DNA of 64,000 bases from a virus. The DNA lies in the IMG/VR virus record IMGVR_UViG_3300042314_001189, positions 64,001 through 128,000 of that record; one strand, 5' to 3'. Each line of letters begins with the position of its first letter. The stretch's first letter is position 1. Shown in pieces: positions 2,542 to 42,806 of the stretch. The notes beneath the pieces were generated by a model, which searched no databases, was not told where the DNA came from, and saw only the letters and a list, made by a program, of their open reading frames with translations. A program made the position numbers and the translations under genes.

Positions 2542-3171
2542 ATGGAAATAAAAAGTCGTTTAAGACAATTATTAAAAGAATCTATAGAAGGCAACTACGG
2601 CTACCATGTTGGTAATCTAACAACAAAGTCTGAATTTATTGGTGAAAAGGCGTTTGGTGGTAGAAGTTTAGCTTTGCAAGGTCTTGGTGGTGCTAGTAAG
2701 ACTGGCCAGTTTGGTGCTGGTCATTTTTTGTTTGGTACAAAAGAAAAAGCAGAAGATTTTAGAAAAACAAAAGACAGACCAATTTATAAGGTTGATTTTG
2801 GTCAATATAGAATGTATAGACCTAGCGATGCCAAAGAATTTGTAGAAGGCGTAATCAACCTTACGAATCAACTTATTATGGTTCCAGAAAGGTTTGCCGA
2901 AACTCAAGAGTTCAACGATGTTATCGATGACTTGGCACAAGATTTACCTAGTTTTGGTATTACTCTTTCAAGAGATAAAATATTCCAAATAACGAAAGGA
3001 TTTGTCGAAGACGTAACCGAAATGAAGAACCCAAAAAGTGATTACCTTATCACTAGATACCTTAAATCAATGGGTTATGAGGGGTTAGATTTAAGAAACA
3101 CACCATACGATTCCTACTATATTGGCTCTGTAATATACGATTTAAAAGCAAATACTGTTTCAGAAGCTTAA
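2542..3171 (+). CDS. Putative ADP-ribosyltransferase-fold virion protein
   Basis: YGYHVG...FGAGHFLF...GYEG pattern; N-terminal LRQLLKE leader; upstream TATTTATA. Confidence 0.35.
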   Translation: MEIKSRLRQLLKESIEGNYGYHVGNLTTKSEFIGEKAFGGRSLALQGLGGASKTGQFGAGHFLFGTKEKAEDFRKTKDRPIYKVDFGQYRMYRPSDAKEFVEGVINLTNQLIMVPERFAETQEFNDVIDDLAQDLPSFGITLSRDKIFQITKGFVEDVTEMKNPKSDYLITRYLKSMGYEGLDLRNTPYDSYYIGSVIYDLKANTVSEA

Positions 3172-3207
3172 TTTTACTTAAAATTAGTTGTTATTTAAGA
3201 TATTATT

Positions 3208-4017
3208 GTGTATCTTTGTAATAAATTATTAGACATGAGTAAAGCAAAATTATGGGTTGGGCCAGTATATTTAGAGCCGATAGAACATAAGTATCATCAT
3301 AGAGAAACTGGAAAAATTTATAAGTCGGTAACTACGACACTTTCATCTATTGAACCTCATTTTGATTCTGAAGCTGTTTCTTTGGCGATAACCAAACAGC
3401 TAGATACTGTTAAACAAGAACGTTATATTGGGCTAACGCAGCAACAAATTTTAGATTATTGGCAAATGCTTAATGATGAAGCTAACATTTATGGAACAAA
3501 AGTCCATGATATTGTTGAGCGTTATTTGCTGGCTAACAAATGGTATTTCCCACCAGAAAATGAAGAAGGTGAGTTTGAACAAAAAGTCATTGATGGGTAT
3601 AACGGGTTAAATATTGATGAGGGTGTTGCAATGTGGCCAGAAAGAATTTTGTTTGCGGAACAATACGAATTGGCTGGTATGTCTGACCTTATAATCGATA
3701 TTGATGATGTGTTTTTTGATGTATGGGACTGGAAAACCAATAGAGAGTTTAACTTCTTCAACCCATATGGTTTTGAAACGCTTTATAAACCTTTTGACCA
3801 CTTACAATCGTGTCAATGGTCTATATATACGCTGCAACTTTCAGTTTATGCTTATATGTATGAATTGGAATTCCCTGGTCGTAAGTGTAGACAAATAAGA
3901 ATTGGGTATTGGGATAAAGAAAAAATGACGTTTGAAAAAATTCAAATTATGTATTTGAAACATGAAGCCAAAAAACTTATTGAGATGCACCACTATAACA
4001 TAATGAAAAACGCATAA
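3208..4017 (+). CDS. PD-(D/E)XK exonuclease
   Basis: SVTT, GTKVH, AGMSDL, DWKT and LQLSVY motifs. Confidence 0.8.
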   Translation: MYLCNKLLDMSKAKLWVGPVYLEPIEHKYHHRETGKIYKSVTTTLSSIEPHFDSEAVSLAITKQLDTVKQERYIGLTQQQILDYWQMLNDEANIYGTKVHDIVERYLLANKWYFPPENEEGEFEQKVIDGYNGLNIDEGVAMWPERILFAEQYELAGMSDLIIDIDDVFFDVWDWKTNREFNFFNPYGFETLYKPFDHLQSCQWSIYTLQLSVYAYMYELEFPGRKCRQIRIGYWDKEKMTFEKIQIMYLKHEAKKLIEMHHYNIMKNA

Positions 4018-5697: not shown

Positions 5698-8056
5698 TAC
5701 AGACGTTATGGATATCAAGGCAATATCCCCTTATTCAAAAATCAAAGTCTATTGGGATGATAGACCAGAAAATTATAGCAAAGAAGCCAAGAACAAAGTT
5801 AGAAATTATTTTGCTAACAAATATGGTGTTGCTAAGAACAACATCAATGTTGTTTATAGACCAGTTAGGTTAAACGATAAAGGCGATGTTATTGAAATTA
5901 CTGGTGCTGGTATTGAAAACATTATGGATGTAGGGTACCAAAGAGCCCTTATGAAAGAGTTAATCGATAGAGACGGTAAATCGGTTGACTTTAACCGTAT
6001 AATCGCTTTAGATGATAAAGTAAACGCATCATTAAACGTTGATTTGACAGAAGCGCAACACAGAAGCTGGTCAATCAAATGGGTGATGATTGATAACTTC
6101 TTATCTTTTGGTGAAAATAACTATGTTCCTTTTAGTAAACTAAGAGGTTTAACAGTTGTTAATTCAATGCCATCTAATCAAGGTGGTAAAACAACCTTAA
6201 CGATTGATGCTATTAAATTTTTATTACATGGTAGCACAACAAAAACGGATACAAACGAACAAATCTTCAACACATACACCGATAAAAACGAACTAACTGT
6301 TCGTGGTATGATTGATATTGAAGGTGAAGAAACAATCATAGAACGAAAAATGAGACGCTCAGCCAAAAAAGGTGGTGGGTGGACAGTTGTTAATAAAGTC
6401 AACTATTACAAGATATTACCAGACGGTGAAGAAGAAATGTTGAACGAGGAAGATGCTACTCAAACAACCAAAAAACTTAAAGAAACTATTGGTAGTGAGA
6501 AAGACTTTGAAATGCTTGTTTTAGCAACTGAGAAGAATTTGGATGATTTGATTGGGTTAACAACAACTGAATCTGGTAAAGTTTTAACTAGACTTATTGG
6601 TTTGGAGATTTTAGAAATCAAAGAAAAAGCTGTTAGAGAAATGTATAATGAATTTGCTAGAAAGAAAAAATCTAACGAGTTCGATGTCATAACTCTTGGT
6701 AATGAAATTGATGAACACGAAGAAAAAATCGTTTTATGTGATGAGTTAGAAAAAACTTTAAACGAAAAACTAGAATCTAACAAAAACGAAATTGTTAGAT
6801 TAAACGGTGAGAACGATAGGTTAATAGACAGCAAAGAAAAAATTGATGTTACGATATCTGAATTAAACCCAGAAACATTAGAAAGTGAAATAGAAACTTT
6901 AATTGAAAAAGGTGTCGGTTTAAAAGAAAAGGTTGATGAGTTTGTTGTTAAGATAGATGAAATAGGTAATATTGTTTTTGATGAAGATAGACACTTTGAA
7001 TTAACCAAATCCGTAAACGCTAAGACAACTGAAAAAGCTGTTCATTCAGCTGAAATAAGTAGGTTAGAAACGGTTATTGAGGATTTAATAGCTGGTGGTA
7101 TTTGTCAATCATGCAACAGAAAATTGGATGATGTAGATAATACAGAACACATAAACACACACAAAGTACAAATTGAAAATACTAGAGCCAAAGTTACTAA
7201 ACTAGGTCAAGAAATAAAAGTTTTGAATGATGAATTGAGTGGGTTAACTGAAACTAAAAAATCTGTTGATATCAAAAACAAATTAGAGTTAGATAAAGAC
7301 AGAACGGAAGTTGAAATTGGTTCACTTAGAAACAAAGTTGTTGCTAAGAAAAACGACTTGAAAAAATATAAACTTAATTTGGATGCTATCGAATTAAACA
7401 AGAAAATTGACATAGAGATTAGTAAAGTTAAAACTGATTTGTCTGTTTGTGAATTTGCTAAAGATGATGCGATAACCAAAATAGAAAGAGTTCAAACAGA
7501 TATTAAAAATCACAAAAAAGACATAGCAACCAAAACAAAACTTATTGAAACTATCAAGAAAGAAGAAGAGGTTGATAAAATATTCAAAATTTATATTGAT
7601 TTAGTAGGGAAGAAAGGTATTAGCAAATTAGTGTTGCGTTCAGTTTTACCAATAATTAACTCTGAAGCACAAAGATTGCTAGAAGATGTTGTAGATTTTG
7701 ATATTGAGATATTTATGAATGATAAGAATGATGTTCAATTTTTGATTGTTAAAGATGAAATCTCTAAGTTGTTAAAATCTGGTTCTGGACTAGAAAAAAC
7801 AGCTGCAAGTTTAGCTTTAAGAGCTGTACTAGGGAAATTATCAACGTTACCGATGCCAAACTTTATCACTTTTGATGAGGTTTTAGGTAAAGTGGCACCA
7901 GAAAATATTGAAAAACTGAAACACTTATTTGATAAAATAAAAGATATGTATGAGATAGTTTTCTTTATTACACACAACGACCTAGTAAAAGACTGGGGTG
8001 ATAATGTCGTGACCGTCAACAAGATAGATAACGTTTCTAAAATATCTTTTAAATAA
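5687..8056 (+). CDS. Rad50/SbcC-like ATPase (T4 gp46-like)
   Basis: NQGGKT Walker A, CQSC zinc hook, SGLEK signature, FDEV Walker B, ITH. Confidence 0.9.
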   Translation: MVSNTDVMDIKAISPYSKIKVYWDDRPENYSKEAKNKVRNYFANKYGVAKNNINVVYRPVRLNDKGDVIEITGAGIENIMDVGYQRALMKELIDRDGKSVDFNRIIALDDKVNASLNVDLTEAQHRSWSIKWVMIDNFLSFGENNYVPFSKLRGLTVVNSMPSNQGGKTTLTIDAIKFLLHGSTTKTDTNEQIFNTYTDKNELTVRGMIDIEGEETIIERKMRRSAKKGGGWTVVNKVNYYKILPDGEEEMLNEEDATQTTKKLKETIGSEKDFEMLVLATEKNLDDLIGLTTTESGKVLTRLIGLEILEIKEKAVREMYNEFARKKKSNEFDVITLGNEIDEHEEKIVLCDELEKTLNEKLESNKNEIVRLNGENDRLIDSKEKIDVTISELNPETLESEIETLIEKGVGLKEKVDEFVVKIDEIGNIVFDEDRHFELTKSVNAKTTEKAVHSAEISRLETVIEDLIAGGICQSCNRKLDDVDNTEHINTHKVQIENTRAKVTKLGQEIKVLNDELSGLTETKKSVDIKNKLELDKDRTEVEIGSLRNKVVAKKNDLKKYKLNLDAIELNKKIDIEISKVKTDLSVCEFAKDDAITKIERVQTDIKNHKKDIATKTKLIETIKKEEEVDKIFKIYIDLVGKKGISKLVLRSVLPIINSEAQRLLEDVVDFDIEIFMNDKNDVQFLIVKDEISKLLKSGSGLEKTAASLALRAVLGKLSTLPMPNFITFDEVLGKVAPENIEKLKHLFDKIKDMYEIVFFITHNDLVKDWGDNVVTVNKIDNVSKISFK

Positions 8057-34194: not shown

Positions 34195-34872
34195 ATGGAA
34201 AAAGTAATTTTAGAAATTCGTGATGCTGAAGGCGGTGCCGATGCAAAGCTGTTGGTTGGTGAAATGAAAGACATTTACATCAAGACAGCAAAAAACAATA
34301 ACCTTAACTGACTGATAGTCGAAGAAAGGGAAGGATTTGTCGTGATGTGACTAACTGGTCATAATGTCAAAAAAATCTTTAAGAACGAAGTCGGTAATCA
34401 CCGATGGCAACGAATACCACCAACCGAAAGAAAAGGTAGGGTTCATACTAGTTCAATAACAGTAGCAATTTTAGAGGAAAACGAATATAAGGAAGTAGAA
34501 TTACAACCTAATGAATATCGTTTGGAAACAACCCGTGGTACGGGTAACGGTGGTCAACATAAGAACACCACAGATTCATGTGTGGTGGTCACACACATGG
34601 CTACTGGCATCAAAGTAGTTCGAGATGGTAGAAATCAACACAAGAACAAAGAAGATGCGTTAAAAGAGCTTAAAACACGTGTGAATAAATTTTATCGCAC
34701 TGGTCATATAGAAGAATCTGTTGAAGAACGAAGAGACCAAATAGGTAAAGGTGAAAGAAGTGATAAACGTAGAACGTATCGTGTGAAAGACGCTATTGTT
34801 ATTGACCATATAACCAATAAGACTGTAAGTTTGAAAGATATTTTAAAAGGTAAGATAGAATTATTTGCATAA
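34195..34872 (+). CDS. Class I peptide chain release factor (RF1-type, lacking domain 1) with two in-frame TGA codons (34309-11, 34348-50)
   Basis: MEKVILEIRDAEGG...N*LIVEEREGFVVM*LTG...HRWQRIPPTERKGRVHTS...GNGGQH...RRTY, all in one frame. Confidence 0.8.
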
Positions 34873-35457
34873 TTGAAAAATAAGTAGTATCTTTGTGGAA
34901 AATAAAAATAAGATGGAAAAAGAAACACCAAAAACAATAACGGTATTTGCTACTGAATCATATGAGACATATCTTTTCAGAGAATCATTAGAAATAAATG
35001 TTGAAGATTATCCAGAATTGGCTGGTATGAGTAAAGAAGAGATTGTTTCATACGTTGAAGAAAATGCGTGGGAAATGAAACCTACTGATAGTGAATATTA
35101 CGAATCTTTAGGTGAAGAACTAATGGAACGTGATATTATCAGAGATAAAATAACAAATGAAACTGCTGAGGTAACTGTAAAATAATGGAAAAGTTAACAT
35201 CTGAAAATCTAAGAAATTTCATCAACACGTATCCAACAAAATATCAATATGGTTTTTTGGCTAGTGAAACTAATGAGATATTGGAAAAGTTTGAAATTGA
35301 CAAAGAAAAGTTTTATGAAGCCTTGGGGGTTAATACTTGCATGTTGATGGAAGGTCAAGTTTTAAATTATCATTGCGATATTGAATTAGCTTTACGTTGC
35401 GTAATTGAAAATAGAGAGAAAACACTAGATGAGTGGGATTAAATAAAAAGTAAAAAA

Positions 35458-35961
35458 ATGTTTAAAAAAATGTTAATCATAGGCCACATGAGGCACGGTA
35501 AGGACAGTCTTGCTGAAATCATGAACGAAGAGTTTGGTTTGACTTTCAAATCATCTTCACAATCAGCTGCGGATATATTTTTATATGATGCGCTAAAAGA
35601 CAAATACGGTTATAAAACACCAGAAGAATGCTTTGAAGATAGAGTTAATCACAGAGCTGAATGGAAAGATATGATTTGTGACTACAACAAAGATGACCGT
35701 GCCAAATTAGCCAAAGGTATTTTGGAAAAGTCTGATTGTTACGTTGGAATGCGTGATAGAGAAGAAATCCAAGAATGTTTAAACCAAAAATTGTTTGATA
35801 TCATTATATGGGTTGATGCTAGTGAACGACTACCATTAGAAGATGCTTCATCATTCAACATTGATAAAACATGTGCTGATATTATCATTGAGAACAATGG
35901 TACTTTTGAACAATTCAAAGAAAAAGCTATTCGTTTAGGTAATTTTTTGAAAAAAGGTTAA
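35458..35961 (+). CDS. Deoxynucleoside monophosphate kinase-like P-loop protein
   Basis: IIGHMRHGKD P-loop, GMRD, IIENNGT. Confidence 0.65.
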   Translation: MFKKMLIIGHMRHGKDSLAEIMNEEFGLTFKSSSQSAADIFLYDALKDKYGYKTPEECFEDRVNHRAEWKDMICDYNKDDRAKLAKGILEKSDCYVGMRDREEIQECLNQKLFDIIIWVDASERLPLEDASSFNIDKTCADIIIENNGTFEQFKEKAIRLGNFLKKG

Positions 35962-36008
35962 ATAAATTTGCATTATTGAAAAATGTTTAGTACATTTGCA
36001 ATGCAAAC

Positions 36009-36079
36009 GGCTCTATGATGTAACGGCAGCGTAACGGTCTCTAAAACCGATAGAGTGGGTTCGATTCCCACTAGAGTCA
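36009..36079 (+). tRNA. Amber suppressor tRNA (anticodon CTA)
   Basis: GGCTCTA/TAGAGTC acceptor, CGGT-CTCTAAA-ACCG anticodon arm, GTGGG-TTCGATT-CCCAC T arm; own TACATTTG promoter at 35991. Confidence 0.85.
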
Positions 36080-36080
36080 C

Positions 36081-36191
36081 ATGGAAAATCAAGGTAAAAG
36101 AAAAGACCAAATAGAAACATCTGAAAAAGCTTTATTTTTCAGTATAATCGGATTTTTGGTATTATTATTGATACTTATTATTACAAATTAA
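36081..36191 (+). CDS. 36-aa single-TM peptide
   Basis: MENQGKRKDQIETSEKALFFSIIGFLVLLLILIITN. Confidence 0.45.
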   Translation: MENQGKRKDQIETSEKALFFSIIGFLVLLLILIITN

Positions 36192-36200
36192 AAAAAAGTT

Positions 36201-36545
36201 ATGAAGTAGATTAACGAAAAACTTAGAGTTGTCACAAGACGTGACTTATCATTACCAACACAAGCCGTGCAATCAGCACATGCTGCCATCGATTTCCAAC
36301 ATGCTCATCCTAAAGAAGCGACAGATTGGCAGACAAAATCAAATTATCTGGCATTATTGACAGTAGCAAATGAAGAAGAGTTATACAAACTCATAGACAA
36401 GGCTACGATTAGAGGAATTAAATATACAATATTCCGTGAGCCAGACATCAATAACGAAATTACCGCAATAGCATTTGAACCATGTGACGCTAGTAGAAGA
36501 TTAACTAGTGGGTGTCCTTTATTGGGTAAAAATAACAATAACTAA
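36201..36545 (+). CDS. Peptidyl-tRNA hydrolase Pth2-like protein with in-frame TAG at codon 3
   Basis: MK*INEKLRVVTRRDL...QAVQSAHA...FREPD...TAIAF...PLL; the conserved first strand lies upstream of the ORF-track start. Confidence 0.75.
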
Positions 36546-36665
36546 ACTATAGATTATGAATTAGATTAAAGCTCCCCCTTAAATTTATTTTAACTTAGAC
36601 ATTTACTTGGACATTGTGTCCAAGTACTACAAAATAAAATAAAATAAATTTAAAACATAGACAAT

Positions 36666-37085
36666 ATGAAAACTATAGAGCAAAAACAATTAGAAGTTAA
36701 AAATTATTTAACAACATCAGAACAACACTTATTTAAAACTAACAAAGGTGATTTGTTCAAAATAATGCCATTTGAAGTAGACGGAATTTTACATGTGTGT
36801 AAAGTAACCATAAAACAAGATGGTACAATGACATCCAAAGTAAAAAAAGTTTTTACTTACGAAAGTGATAATATAAAACAAAATTGGAAAAATTACTTTT
36901 TCTATAAGAGTTGTTATATTAACGAAGAAGCCATTGCAATTAAACACTTTAAGGGGGTTAGAACCTTTTTTGGTAATTTAATGGGTAATTTAACTATAAA
37001 TGACGAAAAAAACGTTGAATATATGAATAAATTAGTGGATGTTTATAAATTATCTTTAAATTTTGTTGACAAGAAGGAAATTTAA
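36666..37085 (+). CDS. Hypothetical protein
   Basis: ORF track. Confidence 0.5.
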   Translation: MKTIEQKQLEVKNYLTTSEQHLFKTNKGDLFKIMPFEVDGILHVCKVTIKQDGTMTSKVKKVFTYESDNIKQNWKNYFFYKSCYINEEAIAIKHFKGVRTFFGNLMGNLTINDEKNVEYMNKLVDVYKLSLNFVDKKEI

Positions 37086-37125
37086 TCGTATATTTGTCAA
37101 AATAAAATTAACTTAAAAGTAAAAC

Positions 37126-37542
37126 ATGACAGTAAACGAAAACAGTAGTGTTAAAGTACACTACACGGGAAGATTAGAAGATAACACAGTTTTTGATTCA
37201 TCTGTAGATAGAGAACCGTTAGACGTAAAATTGGGTCTAGGTGTTTTGATACCTGGATTTGAAAAAGGTCTACAAGGTCTATCTGTTGGTGAAAAAAGAA
37301 CAATTACAATACCATATACTGAAGCATATGGACCAGTGTTGGAAGAGAGAAGACAAGAAGTTGAAAAACAATATGTACCAGAAGGCGTACAAGTTGGTCA
37401 ACAATTAACTGCTCAAGGTCCACAAGGTGAAATGTATGTTACGGTGGCCGAAGTAAAAGAAAGCACAGTTGTTTTGGATGCCAACCATCCTTTGGCTGGG
37501 AAAGACTTAATCTTCGATTTGGAAGTTTTAGAAATTGCCTAA
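37126..37542 (+). CDS. FKBP-type peptidyl-prolyl isomerase (SlyD/SlpA-like)
   Basis: VHYTG, FDSS, IPGFE, AYG, DANHPLAGKDLIF. Confidence 0.9.
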   Translation: MTVNENSSVKVHYTGRLEDNTVFDSSVDREPLDVKLGLGVLIPGFEKGLQGLSVGEKRTITIPYTEAYGPVLEERRQEVEKQYVPEGVQVGQQLTAQGPQGEMYVTVAEVKESTVVLDANHPLAGKDLIFDLEVLEIA

Positions 37543-37635
37543 CTTAAAAACTAAAAAATTAAAACCCAGAGAAATCTGGGTTTTTTTTATGTCTAAAAAT
37601 TTGGTAGTTTAAAAAAGTTTTCATACCTTTGTCAT

Positions 37636-38583
37636 ATGAAAAAAATAAGTTTAAACAATTTAGGCGGTGAAAATATCACCAACGCTAACAACAGAGATAT
37701 ATTCAATAAGTATTTGGTTGAAGTATCTAAATTTAAACCGTTGACTAGAGAAGAAGAATTCGAGTTATTCAAGAGAGTAAATGAAGATGGTGACAAAAAT
37801 GCGTTGGATAAAGTTTGCAAACATAATTTACGTTTCGTAATAAGTGTTGCTAAAAAATACGCAACAGTTTTAACTAAATCATCACTAACATTAGAAGACT
37901 TGGTTAACGAAGGTAATTTAGGTTTGTGCGTAGCTGCAACTAGGTTTGATTATAAATCTGGTAACAAGTTTATTTCATATGCTGTTTTTTGGATTAAACA
38001 ACATATTTTAACATCAATACAAAAAAACGTAAAATCGATTAGGATTCCTTTGCATGTTAAAAACGACATAAACAAAATTTTAGAAAAACAACAAGAGTTG
38101 GAGCAAATACAAGGTCAATCTGTTTCAACATTAGAAGTGTTTGAGTCACTCATGGAAACTGGCCAGTTAAATGATAAATATGATATTGGCAGAGTTAATA
38201 ACATGTTGAACATTAACAATTTTGAAGATAGTTTAAACCGATTTGTTGGCACCGAAGATAAAACAGAATTATCTGAACTAATCAAAAGTGATTACGCAGA
38301 ACCAGATTCTGAATTAATAGAAAAAGAACGTAGAGCTTTTGCATTAAAAATGATAGAAACTTTACCTTTGATGATAAGACATTATTTTATCGATTACTAC
38401 GGTCTTTTTGGTCATGATGAGTTGAACATACATGAAATGGCTGAAAAATATGGGGAGAACGCCCCAACAATTAAAGCAAGGATGAATAAGTATTTAATGT
38501 TTTTGGCTCGTAAAAATAAAAACTCTAAAATTTATTTTTTGGGTGGAAAAAAAGAAAATAAAGACATTATTTATTGTATTTAA
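37636..38583 (+). CDS. Second sigma70-family factor (divergent region 4)
   Basis: HNLRFVISVAK, DLVNEGNLGL, FISYAVFWI. Confidence 0.9.
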   Translation: MKKISLNNLGGENITNANNRDIFNKYLVEVSKFKPLTREEEFELFKRVNEDGDKNALDKVCKHNLRFVISVAKKYATVLTKSSLTLEDLVNEGNLGLCVAATRFDYKSGNKFISYAVFWIKQHILTSIQKNVKSIRIPLHVKNDINKILEKQQELEQIQGQSVSTLEVFESLMETGQLNDKYDIGRVNNMLNINNFEDSLNRFVGTEDKTELSELIKSDYAEPDSELIEKERRAFALKMIETLPLMIRHYFIDYYGLFGHDELNIHEMAEKYGENAPTIKARMNKYLMFLARKNKNSKIYFLGGKKENKDIIYCI

Positions 38584-42722: not shown

Positions 42723-42795
42723 ACGGGATTAGCTCAATTGGTAGAGTAGCGGTCTCCAAAACCGAAGGTTGCAAGTTCGATTCTTGCATCCCGTG
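42723..42795 (+). tRNA. tRNA-Trp(CCA)
   Basis: CGGT-CTCCAAA-ACCG. Confidence 0.95.
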
Positions 42796-42806
42796 CTAAA
42801 ATATAT

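Follow-up and report, generated by a model that had tools for sequence, protein, structure and literature searches.

Phages that use genetic code 15, crAss-like and Lak phages among them, carry a tRNA(CUA) with which in-frame TAG codons are translated, and their recoding has been proposed to act as a timer of expression (10.1101/2021.08.26.457843). As described, 26-71% of the genes of such phages contain in-frame stops, mainly genes for structural proteins and lysis. The Xanthomonas jumbo phage XacN1 is described as having two tRNA(CUA) genes and a peptidyl-tRNA hydrolase gene, with 18 terminal ambers read through and no target found (PMC5852040), and Iyer et al. (2021) reported the PTH2 superfamily across jumbo phages and read it as serving ribosome rescue (PMC7824862). 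The locus considered here lies in a 64,000-nucleotide stretch of viral DNA (the window), bases 64001-128000 of the 137,444-bp IMG/VR record IMGVR_UViG_3300042314_001189 (G000 below), in which a tRNA gene with the anticodon CTA precedes a PTH2-like gene whose third codon is an in-frame amber, TAG.

Unlike in code-15 phages, the code here is the standard one, a single gene beside the tRNA is concerned, and its one TAG stands at a fixed position near the start; the ambers read through in XacN1, as that phage is described, are terminal, and the target proposed here stands at the beginning of a gene. The word “suppressor” does not occur in the main text of Iyer et al., which describes neither an amber gate nor a linkage to a tRNA, and “hydrolase” is absent from the main texts of the code-15 preprint (Borges et al.) and of a 2026 survey of jumbo phages. 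A full-text literature search returned no paper in which a suppressor tRNA and an early in-frame amber are connected with a PTH2-like gene.

Another early stop is that of prfB, the gene for release factor 2 (RF2), in which an in-frame UGA makes synthesis depend on release-factor recognition, escape occurs by +1 frameshifting, and the gene senses its own product. Our locus resembles prfB in that an early in-frame stop would make synthesis depend on stop recognition, but escape would be provided by a dedicated suppressor tRNA, and the quantity sensed would be the balance between that tRNA and release factor 1 (RF1). On this comparative basis, the amber gate appears to be a new form of suppressor-tRNA-based recoding.

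An early amber codon in a PTH2-like gene

The comparisons reported here make it probable that the PTH2-like protein is produced only when UAG is read by the neighboring suppressor tRNA, so that its synthesis is gated. The gene start reads ATG AAG TAG ATT AAC GAA AAA CTT AGA GTT GTC ACA AGA CGT GAC TTA, and the frame remains open from the TAG to a TAA at 36543-36545 (Table 1). No in-frame ATG, GTG, or TTG lies between the TAG and GTG 36267, which is the first canonical start; the first beta strand (residues 5-10 of the structural model) is encoded within this interval, and a product started at GTG 36267 would consequently be without it. The preliminary description of this DNA had placed ATG AAG TAG about 120 nt 3' of the tRNA, in frame with the annotated open reading frame (ORF), behind an A-rich initiation region and ahead of codons supplying the N-terminal strand of a Pth2-like protein. 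All of this is borne out: the A fraction is 0.6 over the 20 nt preceding ATG 36201, and the match to the PTH2 family begins at residue 4 after the TAG. Because DNA contigs from two other studies are identical to the window across the TAG, the codon is not an assembly error.

The family assignment rests on profile and fold. The match to PF01981 (PTH2) covers profile positions 2-103 of 115 and, at 36.3 bits (E 7e-9), exceeds the cut-off of 23. An AlphaFold2 model computed from 32 homologues reaches a predicted local distance difference score (pLDDT) of 94.8 and a predicted template modeling score (pTM) of 0.88, its 11 best Foldseek matches in the Protein Data Bank (PDB) are all Pth2/Bit1 structures (probability 1.0, TM score 0.74-0.80), and a profile of the 32 homologues matches the Pth2 chain 2zv3 at E 2e-10. 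Archaeal and eukaryotic Pth2 proteins (PDB 2zv3, 1wn2, 1q7s, 3erj, and 1xty) thus have the fold in common with the phage protein, and they share its R-x-D-L, Q-x-x-H, and T-A motifs; eight residues are invariant across 50 distinct genes of the phage family, R10, D12, Q21, H24, E77, and T85 also aligning with conserved Pth2 positions. By contrast, the phage family shows an alignment gap opposite the Gly-Lys-rich loop of canonical Pth2. The protein scores far under the NCBIfam Pth2 equivalog cut-offs (31.2 versus 126 bits for NF003314; 24.6 versus 82 for TIGR00283), for which reason it is assigned, by sequence comparison, to a divergent subfamily of the PTH2 superfamily. It falls in PHROG 1866, “unknown function.”

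One phage, L067, encodes a canonical PTH2 (106 bits) next to its tRNA(CTA) in addition to the gated gene. In both L067 and Tenacibaculum phage pT24 (L087) the gated PTH2-like domain is followed, in the same protein, by a C-terminal domain of ~190 residues, whose match to HD is weak (E 0.006) and below the cut-off. The gated or fused and PTH2 genes of these loci lie at 5986-6906 and 8584-9042 in L067 and at 2962-3903 in pT24. The presence of canonical and gated PTH2 in one locus and the HD-like fusion hint at a role other than bulk peptidyl-tRNA recycling.

Two scans of IMG/VR yielded 6 and then 60 viral loci, the latter representing 50 distinct homologous gene sequences, and the two features that the preliminary description had singled out for comparison, conservation of the codon-3 TAG and its co-occurrence with the suppressor, are both evident among them. 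In 35 of the 50, an ATG is followed by one to three sense codons, TAG, one to eight codons, and the conserved strand, without an intervening ATG, GTG, or TTG; 14 have a normal start, and one (L079) has the same layout with TAA for TAG and a tRNA(TTA) 1.8 kb away. The leaders differ among close relatives (MK* in the window, MKN* in L027, and MK*V in L028), and the TAG is kept. The same TAG pattern was found in 9 of 954 other ORFs of at least 90 codons in the same loci, or 8 of 953 once a paralogue in L036 is removed, so that its frequency among the homologues is far beyond chance. A same-strand tRNA(CTA) was called by ARAGORN in the flank of 31 of the 35 TAG-gated genes, usually 116-141 nt upstream or 0.3-2.5 kb downstream, the flank being the locus DNA around each gene (12-kb loci for the genomes G001 and G005). 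The tRNA also adjoins 11 of the 14 ungated genes, mostly directly downstream, and hence 42 of the 49 gated and ungated genes. Internal in-frame TAGs occur in four of the 14 ungated genes (L072, L073, L075, and L078), and L068 and the uncultured phage LR756501 have both an early and an internal one. In a maximum-likelihood protein tree of 53 rows, in which the mycobacteriophages Bxz1 and Phabba carried a gated label that is now doubted, no more than two changes are required to explain the gate, which extends over long branches. Locus L036 holds two amber-gated PTH2-like paralogues (5186 and 5992) and two tRNA(CTA) genes, and a TonB-dependent receptor gene lies 2 kb downstream on the same phage contig.

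The tRNA itself, with its anticodon at 36041-36043, had been recognized in the preliminary description and was also found by ARAGORN, whose label “tRNA-Pyl” reflects the CTA anticodon only; the PylS synthetase model (TIGR02367) matched nothing in the 137-kb record (39% complete by CheckV), and the tRNA is not assigned to a pyrrolysine system. Relative to L027 and L028, the changes in its stems are compensatory (acceptor pairs 3-70, 4-69, and 5-68 and one T-stem pair), and on that ground it is judged to be under structural selection. The hint that it derives from the phage tRNA-Trp holds for the anticodon arm, CGGTCT-CTA-AAACCG against CGGTCT-CCA-AAACCG, one base apart, and fails for the remainder of the two molecules, which are unlike. 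The suppressor tRNAs of the family are highly diverse, their 46 distinct sequences falling into 30 clusters at 70% identity; the discriminator is A in 29 of them, G in 10, T in 6, and C in 1.

A promoter of its own had also been claimed for the tRNA, in agreement with the motif that lies just upstream of it and that we take to be the Bacteroidota promoter consensus. The window contains 21 matches to this motif, compared with 5.4 +/- 2.3 in shuffled sequences, and none of 100 shuffles reached 21; the -7 box of the copy before the tRNA is kept in L027 and L028. No such motif was found in the stretch from the tRNA to the PTH2-like gene, and the copy upstream probably drives both. A 36-codon ORF with a hydrophobic stretch (36081-36191) starts directly after the tRNA; it is probably not a gene, being doubtful because it lies inside an insertion that L027 and L028 lack.

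Table 1. Principal features of the locus and its surroundings, in window coordinates
Feature	Position	Strand	Remarks
Promoter motif TTTG-N20-TAcaTTTG, presumably of Bacteroidota type	35967-35998	+	Ends 10 nt before tRNA
tRNA, anticodon CTA at 36041-36043	36009-36080	+	ARAGORN; cloverleaf fold; discriminator A; no encoded CCA
Spacer separating the tRNA from the gene, 120 nt	36081-36200	+	69-nt insertion relative to closest relatives L027/L028; A-rich leader
Gate ATG AAG TAG (start, one sense codon, in-frame amber)	36201-36209	+	ATG 36201, AAG 36204, TAG 36207-36209
PTH2-family coding region, 111 codons plus TAA	36210-36545	+	PF01981; AlphaFold2; Foldseek
RF1-like gene without domain 1	34195-34872	+	Pfam RF-1; in-frame TGA at 34309 and 34348 (codons 39 and 52)
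tRNA-Trp(CCA) of the phage	42723-42796	+	ARAGORN; anticodon arm equals that of the suppressor except C35/U35

Readthrough weighed against reinitiation, recoding, and gene decay

The preliminary description had proposed that the hydrolase is expressed conditionally, through amber readthrough. As far as comparison reaches, this proposal stands, on the anatomy of the gene, the conservation of the TAG, the linkage to the tRNA, the TAA/tRNA(TTA) case, and two features of the sequences around the stop. A recognizable Shine-Dalgarno sequence is present in seven loci (L062, L067, L068, L081, BF, XbC2, and LR756501), where it lies 5-10 nt before the prestop ATG and never before the poststop codon; the remaining leaders are A-rich, with an A fraction of 0.5-0.75 in most, as is expected in hosts that do not use Shine-Dalgarno sequences. 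The base after the stop in the 36 gated genes is A in 28 and G in 8, with no pyrimidine, and work by Bossi in 1983 is said to have found in E. coli that a 3' purine favors amber suppression.

Several observations nevertheless weigh against gating, and most of them bear on an unlikely alternative, in which ATG-(1-3 codons)-TAG is a mini-leader after which ribosomes reinitiate at the adjacent ATT, ATA, or GTN, the tRNA(CTA) being merely a neighbor in a tRNA island. The poststop codon is ATT or ATA, a near-cognate start, in 26 of the 36 gated genes, so that reinitiation is possible for those genes, and the module lies among tRNA and RNA-repair genes, where some linkage could arise by location alone. 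Bxz1 and Phabba are linked to a tRNA(CTA) and are probably ungated, since the annotated GTG directly after their TAG has a well-placed Shine-Dalgarno sequence. Two complete genomes, G001 and G005, keep TAG-ATT yet are without a canonical tRNA(CTA): ARAGORN called none in the whole of G001 or in the 12-kb locus of G005, the Rfam tRNA model (E <= 0.1) gave none in the 12-kb loci around either gene, 60 suppressor tRNAs searched with BLAST against G001 had no match, and a loop/T-arm pattern scan of the whole of G005 gave no further candidate. (Permissive ARAGORN settings on G001 produced hundreds of false calls, which were discarded.) Both genomes do have, 5' of the gene, where relatives carry the tRNA, a noncanonical tRNA-like element with CUA in the loop that neither ARAGORN nor Rfam calls; the one in G001 (L046 5523-5593) has an acceptor stem identical to that of the window tRNA and an 8-nt anticodon loop, and the one in G005 (L037 ~5893-5962) has a shortened D arm. 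The frame of L079 appears to be shifted further on, which makes the TAA/tRNA(TTA) covariation a single imperfect case. Contigs from RNA libraries cover 36262-36457 only, at a depth of 2-3.5 in two metatranscriptome runs of one study, and may be DNA carry-over. The gene calling, finally, is crude, and 61% of the phage genome lies outside the record. A further contig over 35937-36029, from one metatranscriptome run, contains a joint that “goes back” and looks like an assembly artifact.

Reinitiation fits poorly, however, with the choice of codons on either side of the gate. Ten of the 36 poststop codons are not starts of any kind (GTT, GTA, AGC, GGC, AAC, and GGT); nonstart codons (AAC, AGC, GGC, GGT, and AAT) follow the stop in L069, L043, L067, L081, BF, XbC2, and GAP32, the last three having AAT. 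The leader stop is TAG in 35 of 36 genes, although TAA ends 128 of the 148 genes of the record, and the sole TAA case pairs with a tRNA(TTA). The ATG is in frame in every case, six genes of the family (L068, L072, L073, L075, L078, and LR756501) contain internal in-frame TAGs, and a mini-leader would leave unexplained why it is specifically tRNA(CTA) that adjoins so many of these genes.

It is quite improbable that the phage simply follows ordinary code-15 recoding, with TAG encoding an amino acid in many late genes of the missing part of the genome and no special gating at this one. The incompleteness of the record, the rarity of TAG as a terminator (9 of 148 genes, with TAA ending 128 and TGA 11), and the fact that database pipelines already translate the gene with Q at the TAG would favor such recoding, and phages with recoded genomes and suppressor tRNAs are well known (Borges et al., 10.1101/2021.08.26.457843). 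The record is nonetheless 89% coding under code 11, by the crude gene call, and TAG still ends genes at 1517, 13324, 20350, and 30293, as had been noted earlier. Treating TAG as sense lifts long-ORF coverage only slightly, in G000 from 0.804 to 0.819 and in the complete genome G001 from 0.719 to 0.736, a gain smaller than or similar to that for TGA, and no further in-frame TAG candidate was found in the 64-kb window or the 137-kb record. The TAG is also confined to one conserved position, codons 3-5, in 35 genes and is not scattered. A scan for ORFs with an upstream stop that is preceded by an in-frame ATG and that have no early start returned the PTH2-like gene alone from G000, and a relaxed version applied to the complete 360-kb genome G001 gave, among TAG cases, the PTH2-like gene and one artifact over a tRNA array. 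(An earlier readthrough scan, requiring at least 25 codons on either side of the stop, was swamped by adjacent same-frame genes and antisense ORFs and is uninformative for N-terminal stops.) A gated gene is thus found once among the ~148 genes of the record and nowhere else in G001, unlike the pattern of a code-15 phage, and since the genome reads as standard code with the PTH2-like gene alone gated, the tRNA(CTA) looks as though it has a single evident in-frame target.

A broken gene or an assembly error can practically be dismissed. A stop at codon 3 resembles a defect when seen in isolation, and GenBank has truncated or skipped the gene in four isolates; the protein is conserved over 50 distinct genes with its eight invariant residues and gives a confident model, and four isolate genomes, as well as contigs from two other studies, contain the same TAG, a conservation that contradicts decay.

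Cultured phages and neighboring genes

A tblastn search of the phage collection gave 245 records with a member of the family, of which 206 belong to Mycobacterium phages; nine records were looked at. Tenacibaculum phage pT24 begins ATG AAA TAG ATA, with a tRNA(CTA) 2.6 kb upstream, and its GenBank coding sequence (CDS) is truncated, beginning inside the domain. Three others have AAT after the stop and a tRNA(CTA) downstream: Serratia phage BF (ATG ACG CAC TAG AAT; 3.3 kb), for which GenBank has no CDS, and Xanthomonas phage XbC2 (ATG GCT CAC TAG AAT; 3.7 kb) and Cronobacter phage GAP32 (ATG GCA CAA TAG AAT; 3.1 kb), for which the CDS is truncated. The 735-kb genome of LR756501 begins the gene with ATG TCG TAG ATT, has an internal TAG, and carries two tRNA(CTA) genes. 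In Aeromonas phage phiAS5 the gene starts normally, and no tRNA lies within 3 kb of it. Bxz1 (ATG TAG GTG) and Phabba (GTG TAG GTG), each with a tRNA(CTA) just downstream, were taken as gated and have been withdrawn, because the Shine-Dalgarno spacing fits the GTG after the TAG. The Phabba tRNA (L101 5465-5535) is Arg(tct) in GenBank and that of Bxz1 (L090 3657-3729) a “tRNA-like product,” where ARAGORN reads CTA; their loop, TTCTAAC, allows either register, and stem pairing favors CTA.

The record has a G+C content of ~32% and 24 tRNA genes, and since its relatives are 245-430 kb long, it is a fragment of a jumbo phage. Lake and freshwater metagenomes from 14 studies contain DNA nearly identical to it (17 runs with at least half of the sampled words), and window positions 35400-37600 had no blastn match in the phage collection. 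The motif TTTG-N17-21-TAnnTTTG is 4-fold over-represented in the window, mostly 5' of plus-strand genes (for example, at 34864-34895, 35967-35998, and 37600-37631); this abundance and the lack of Shine-Dalgarno motifs fit a Bacteroidota host. Just 3' of the tRNA and PTH2-like genes lie an FKBP-type prolyl isomerase gene (37126-37542; Pfam match) and, at 37636-38583, a gene that by the look of its sequence encodes a sigma-70-type factor.

Across the family, genes for tRNA maturation and RNA repair recur in the neighborhood (CCA-adding enzyme, Thg1, RNA ligase, RlaP, and HAD_SAK_2), and a Pfam scan of the 145 plus-strand ORFs among 171 within ~3.5 kb at 16 loci, the 26 minus-strand ORFs being left out, found no constant third partner. 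In the two complete jumbo phage genomes, transfer-messenger RNA genes lie ~5 kb upstream of the PTH2-like locus (L037 50-432, L046 1208-1584, and G001 194289-194663). Many of the 48 tRNA calls in G001 are 84-97 nt long and belong to types whose variable arm is normally short (Thr, Gly, Lys, Gln, Asp, Val, Cys, Ile, Asn, Trp, and His); these long tRNAs may hold insertions or introns.

Upstream in the window is the RF1-like gene with two in-frame TGAs. It matches PF00472 (GGQ domain) at E 1e-20, and its scores of 204 bits for prfA, 109 for prfB, and 74 for prfH place it in the RF1 class, all three falling short of the equivalog cut-offs owing to the absence of domain 1. Both TGAs are kept in 8 related loci (L030, L031, L032/L034, L033, L036, and L038/L039); in L035 Cys replaces both, and in L037 the first is kept as TGA while the second is Cys. 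A tRNA(TCA) was not found in the 137-kb record. The preliminary description had joined this gene and the hydrolase in a stop-codon-based control circuit, of which the two in-frame TGAs and their conservation uphold one part, whereas four other records with a gated gene, one of them a complete genome, have no member of the RF-1 family, so that any link to RF1 is confined to a sub-lineage. A UGA-readthrough RF1 beside a UAG-readthrough hydrolase is suggestive of a circuit, though a lineage-specific one.

A proposed mechanism and its implications

In the model that we favor, that of gated synthesis, the tRNA(CUA) and the PTH2-like gene make up a single cassette, whose transcription probably starts at the promoter before the tRNA. 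A ribosome would start at ATG 36201, read one codon, and meet UAG. If RF1 won, a dipeptide would be released and no enzyme made; if the charged suppressor tRNA won, a residue would be inserted into the unstructured N-terminal tail, yielding a PTH2-like protein of 114 residues. Synthesis of the enzyme would in this way depend on how active the suppressor tRNA is in relation to RF1, and in this lineage the nearby UGA-gated RF1-like gene could oppose the gate. We infer from the comparative data that readthrough occurs and that the tRNA is charged. The internal TAGs align with variable residues, and the tRNA bodies are too diverse to point to the residue inserted at the TAG; because the TAG lies in a nonconserved tail, the act of readthrough, and not the residue inserted, seems to matter.

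What the enzyme would do is a more tentative matter. It might clear tRNA esters, either peptidyl- or aminoacyl-tRNA, that are created by UAG suppression, and its production would then scale with suppression in a feed-forward manner, a possibility toward which we lean only weakly. A closed feedback pair, in which the substrate of the enzyme would be the suppressor tRNA's own ester (short peptidyl-tRNA(CUA) dropped at early ambers, or the aminoacyl form), is more doubtful and is offered as speculation. Were such a pair to exist, the cassette would both measure and set the strength of UAG reading in the infected cell, the UGA-gated RF1 would in this lineage be a second arm, and the whole would amount to a stop-codon logic circuit that retunes host termination while the phage genome stays unrecoded.

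The comparison corrects the GenBank annotation of a gene that is truncated in pT24, XbC2, and GAP32 and missing in BF, and the occurrence of the cassette in these four cultured phages opens the gate to direct testing. Many large phages with the standard code carry amber suppressor tRNAs without known purpose, for which an amber at codons 3-5 of a PTH2-like neighbor is a concrete, testable target. The suppressor would then serve, for the most part, one codon of a single gene, and the cassette may be a first step toward full recoding of TAG, or a leftover of it.

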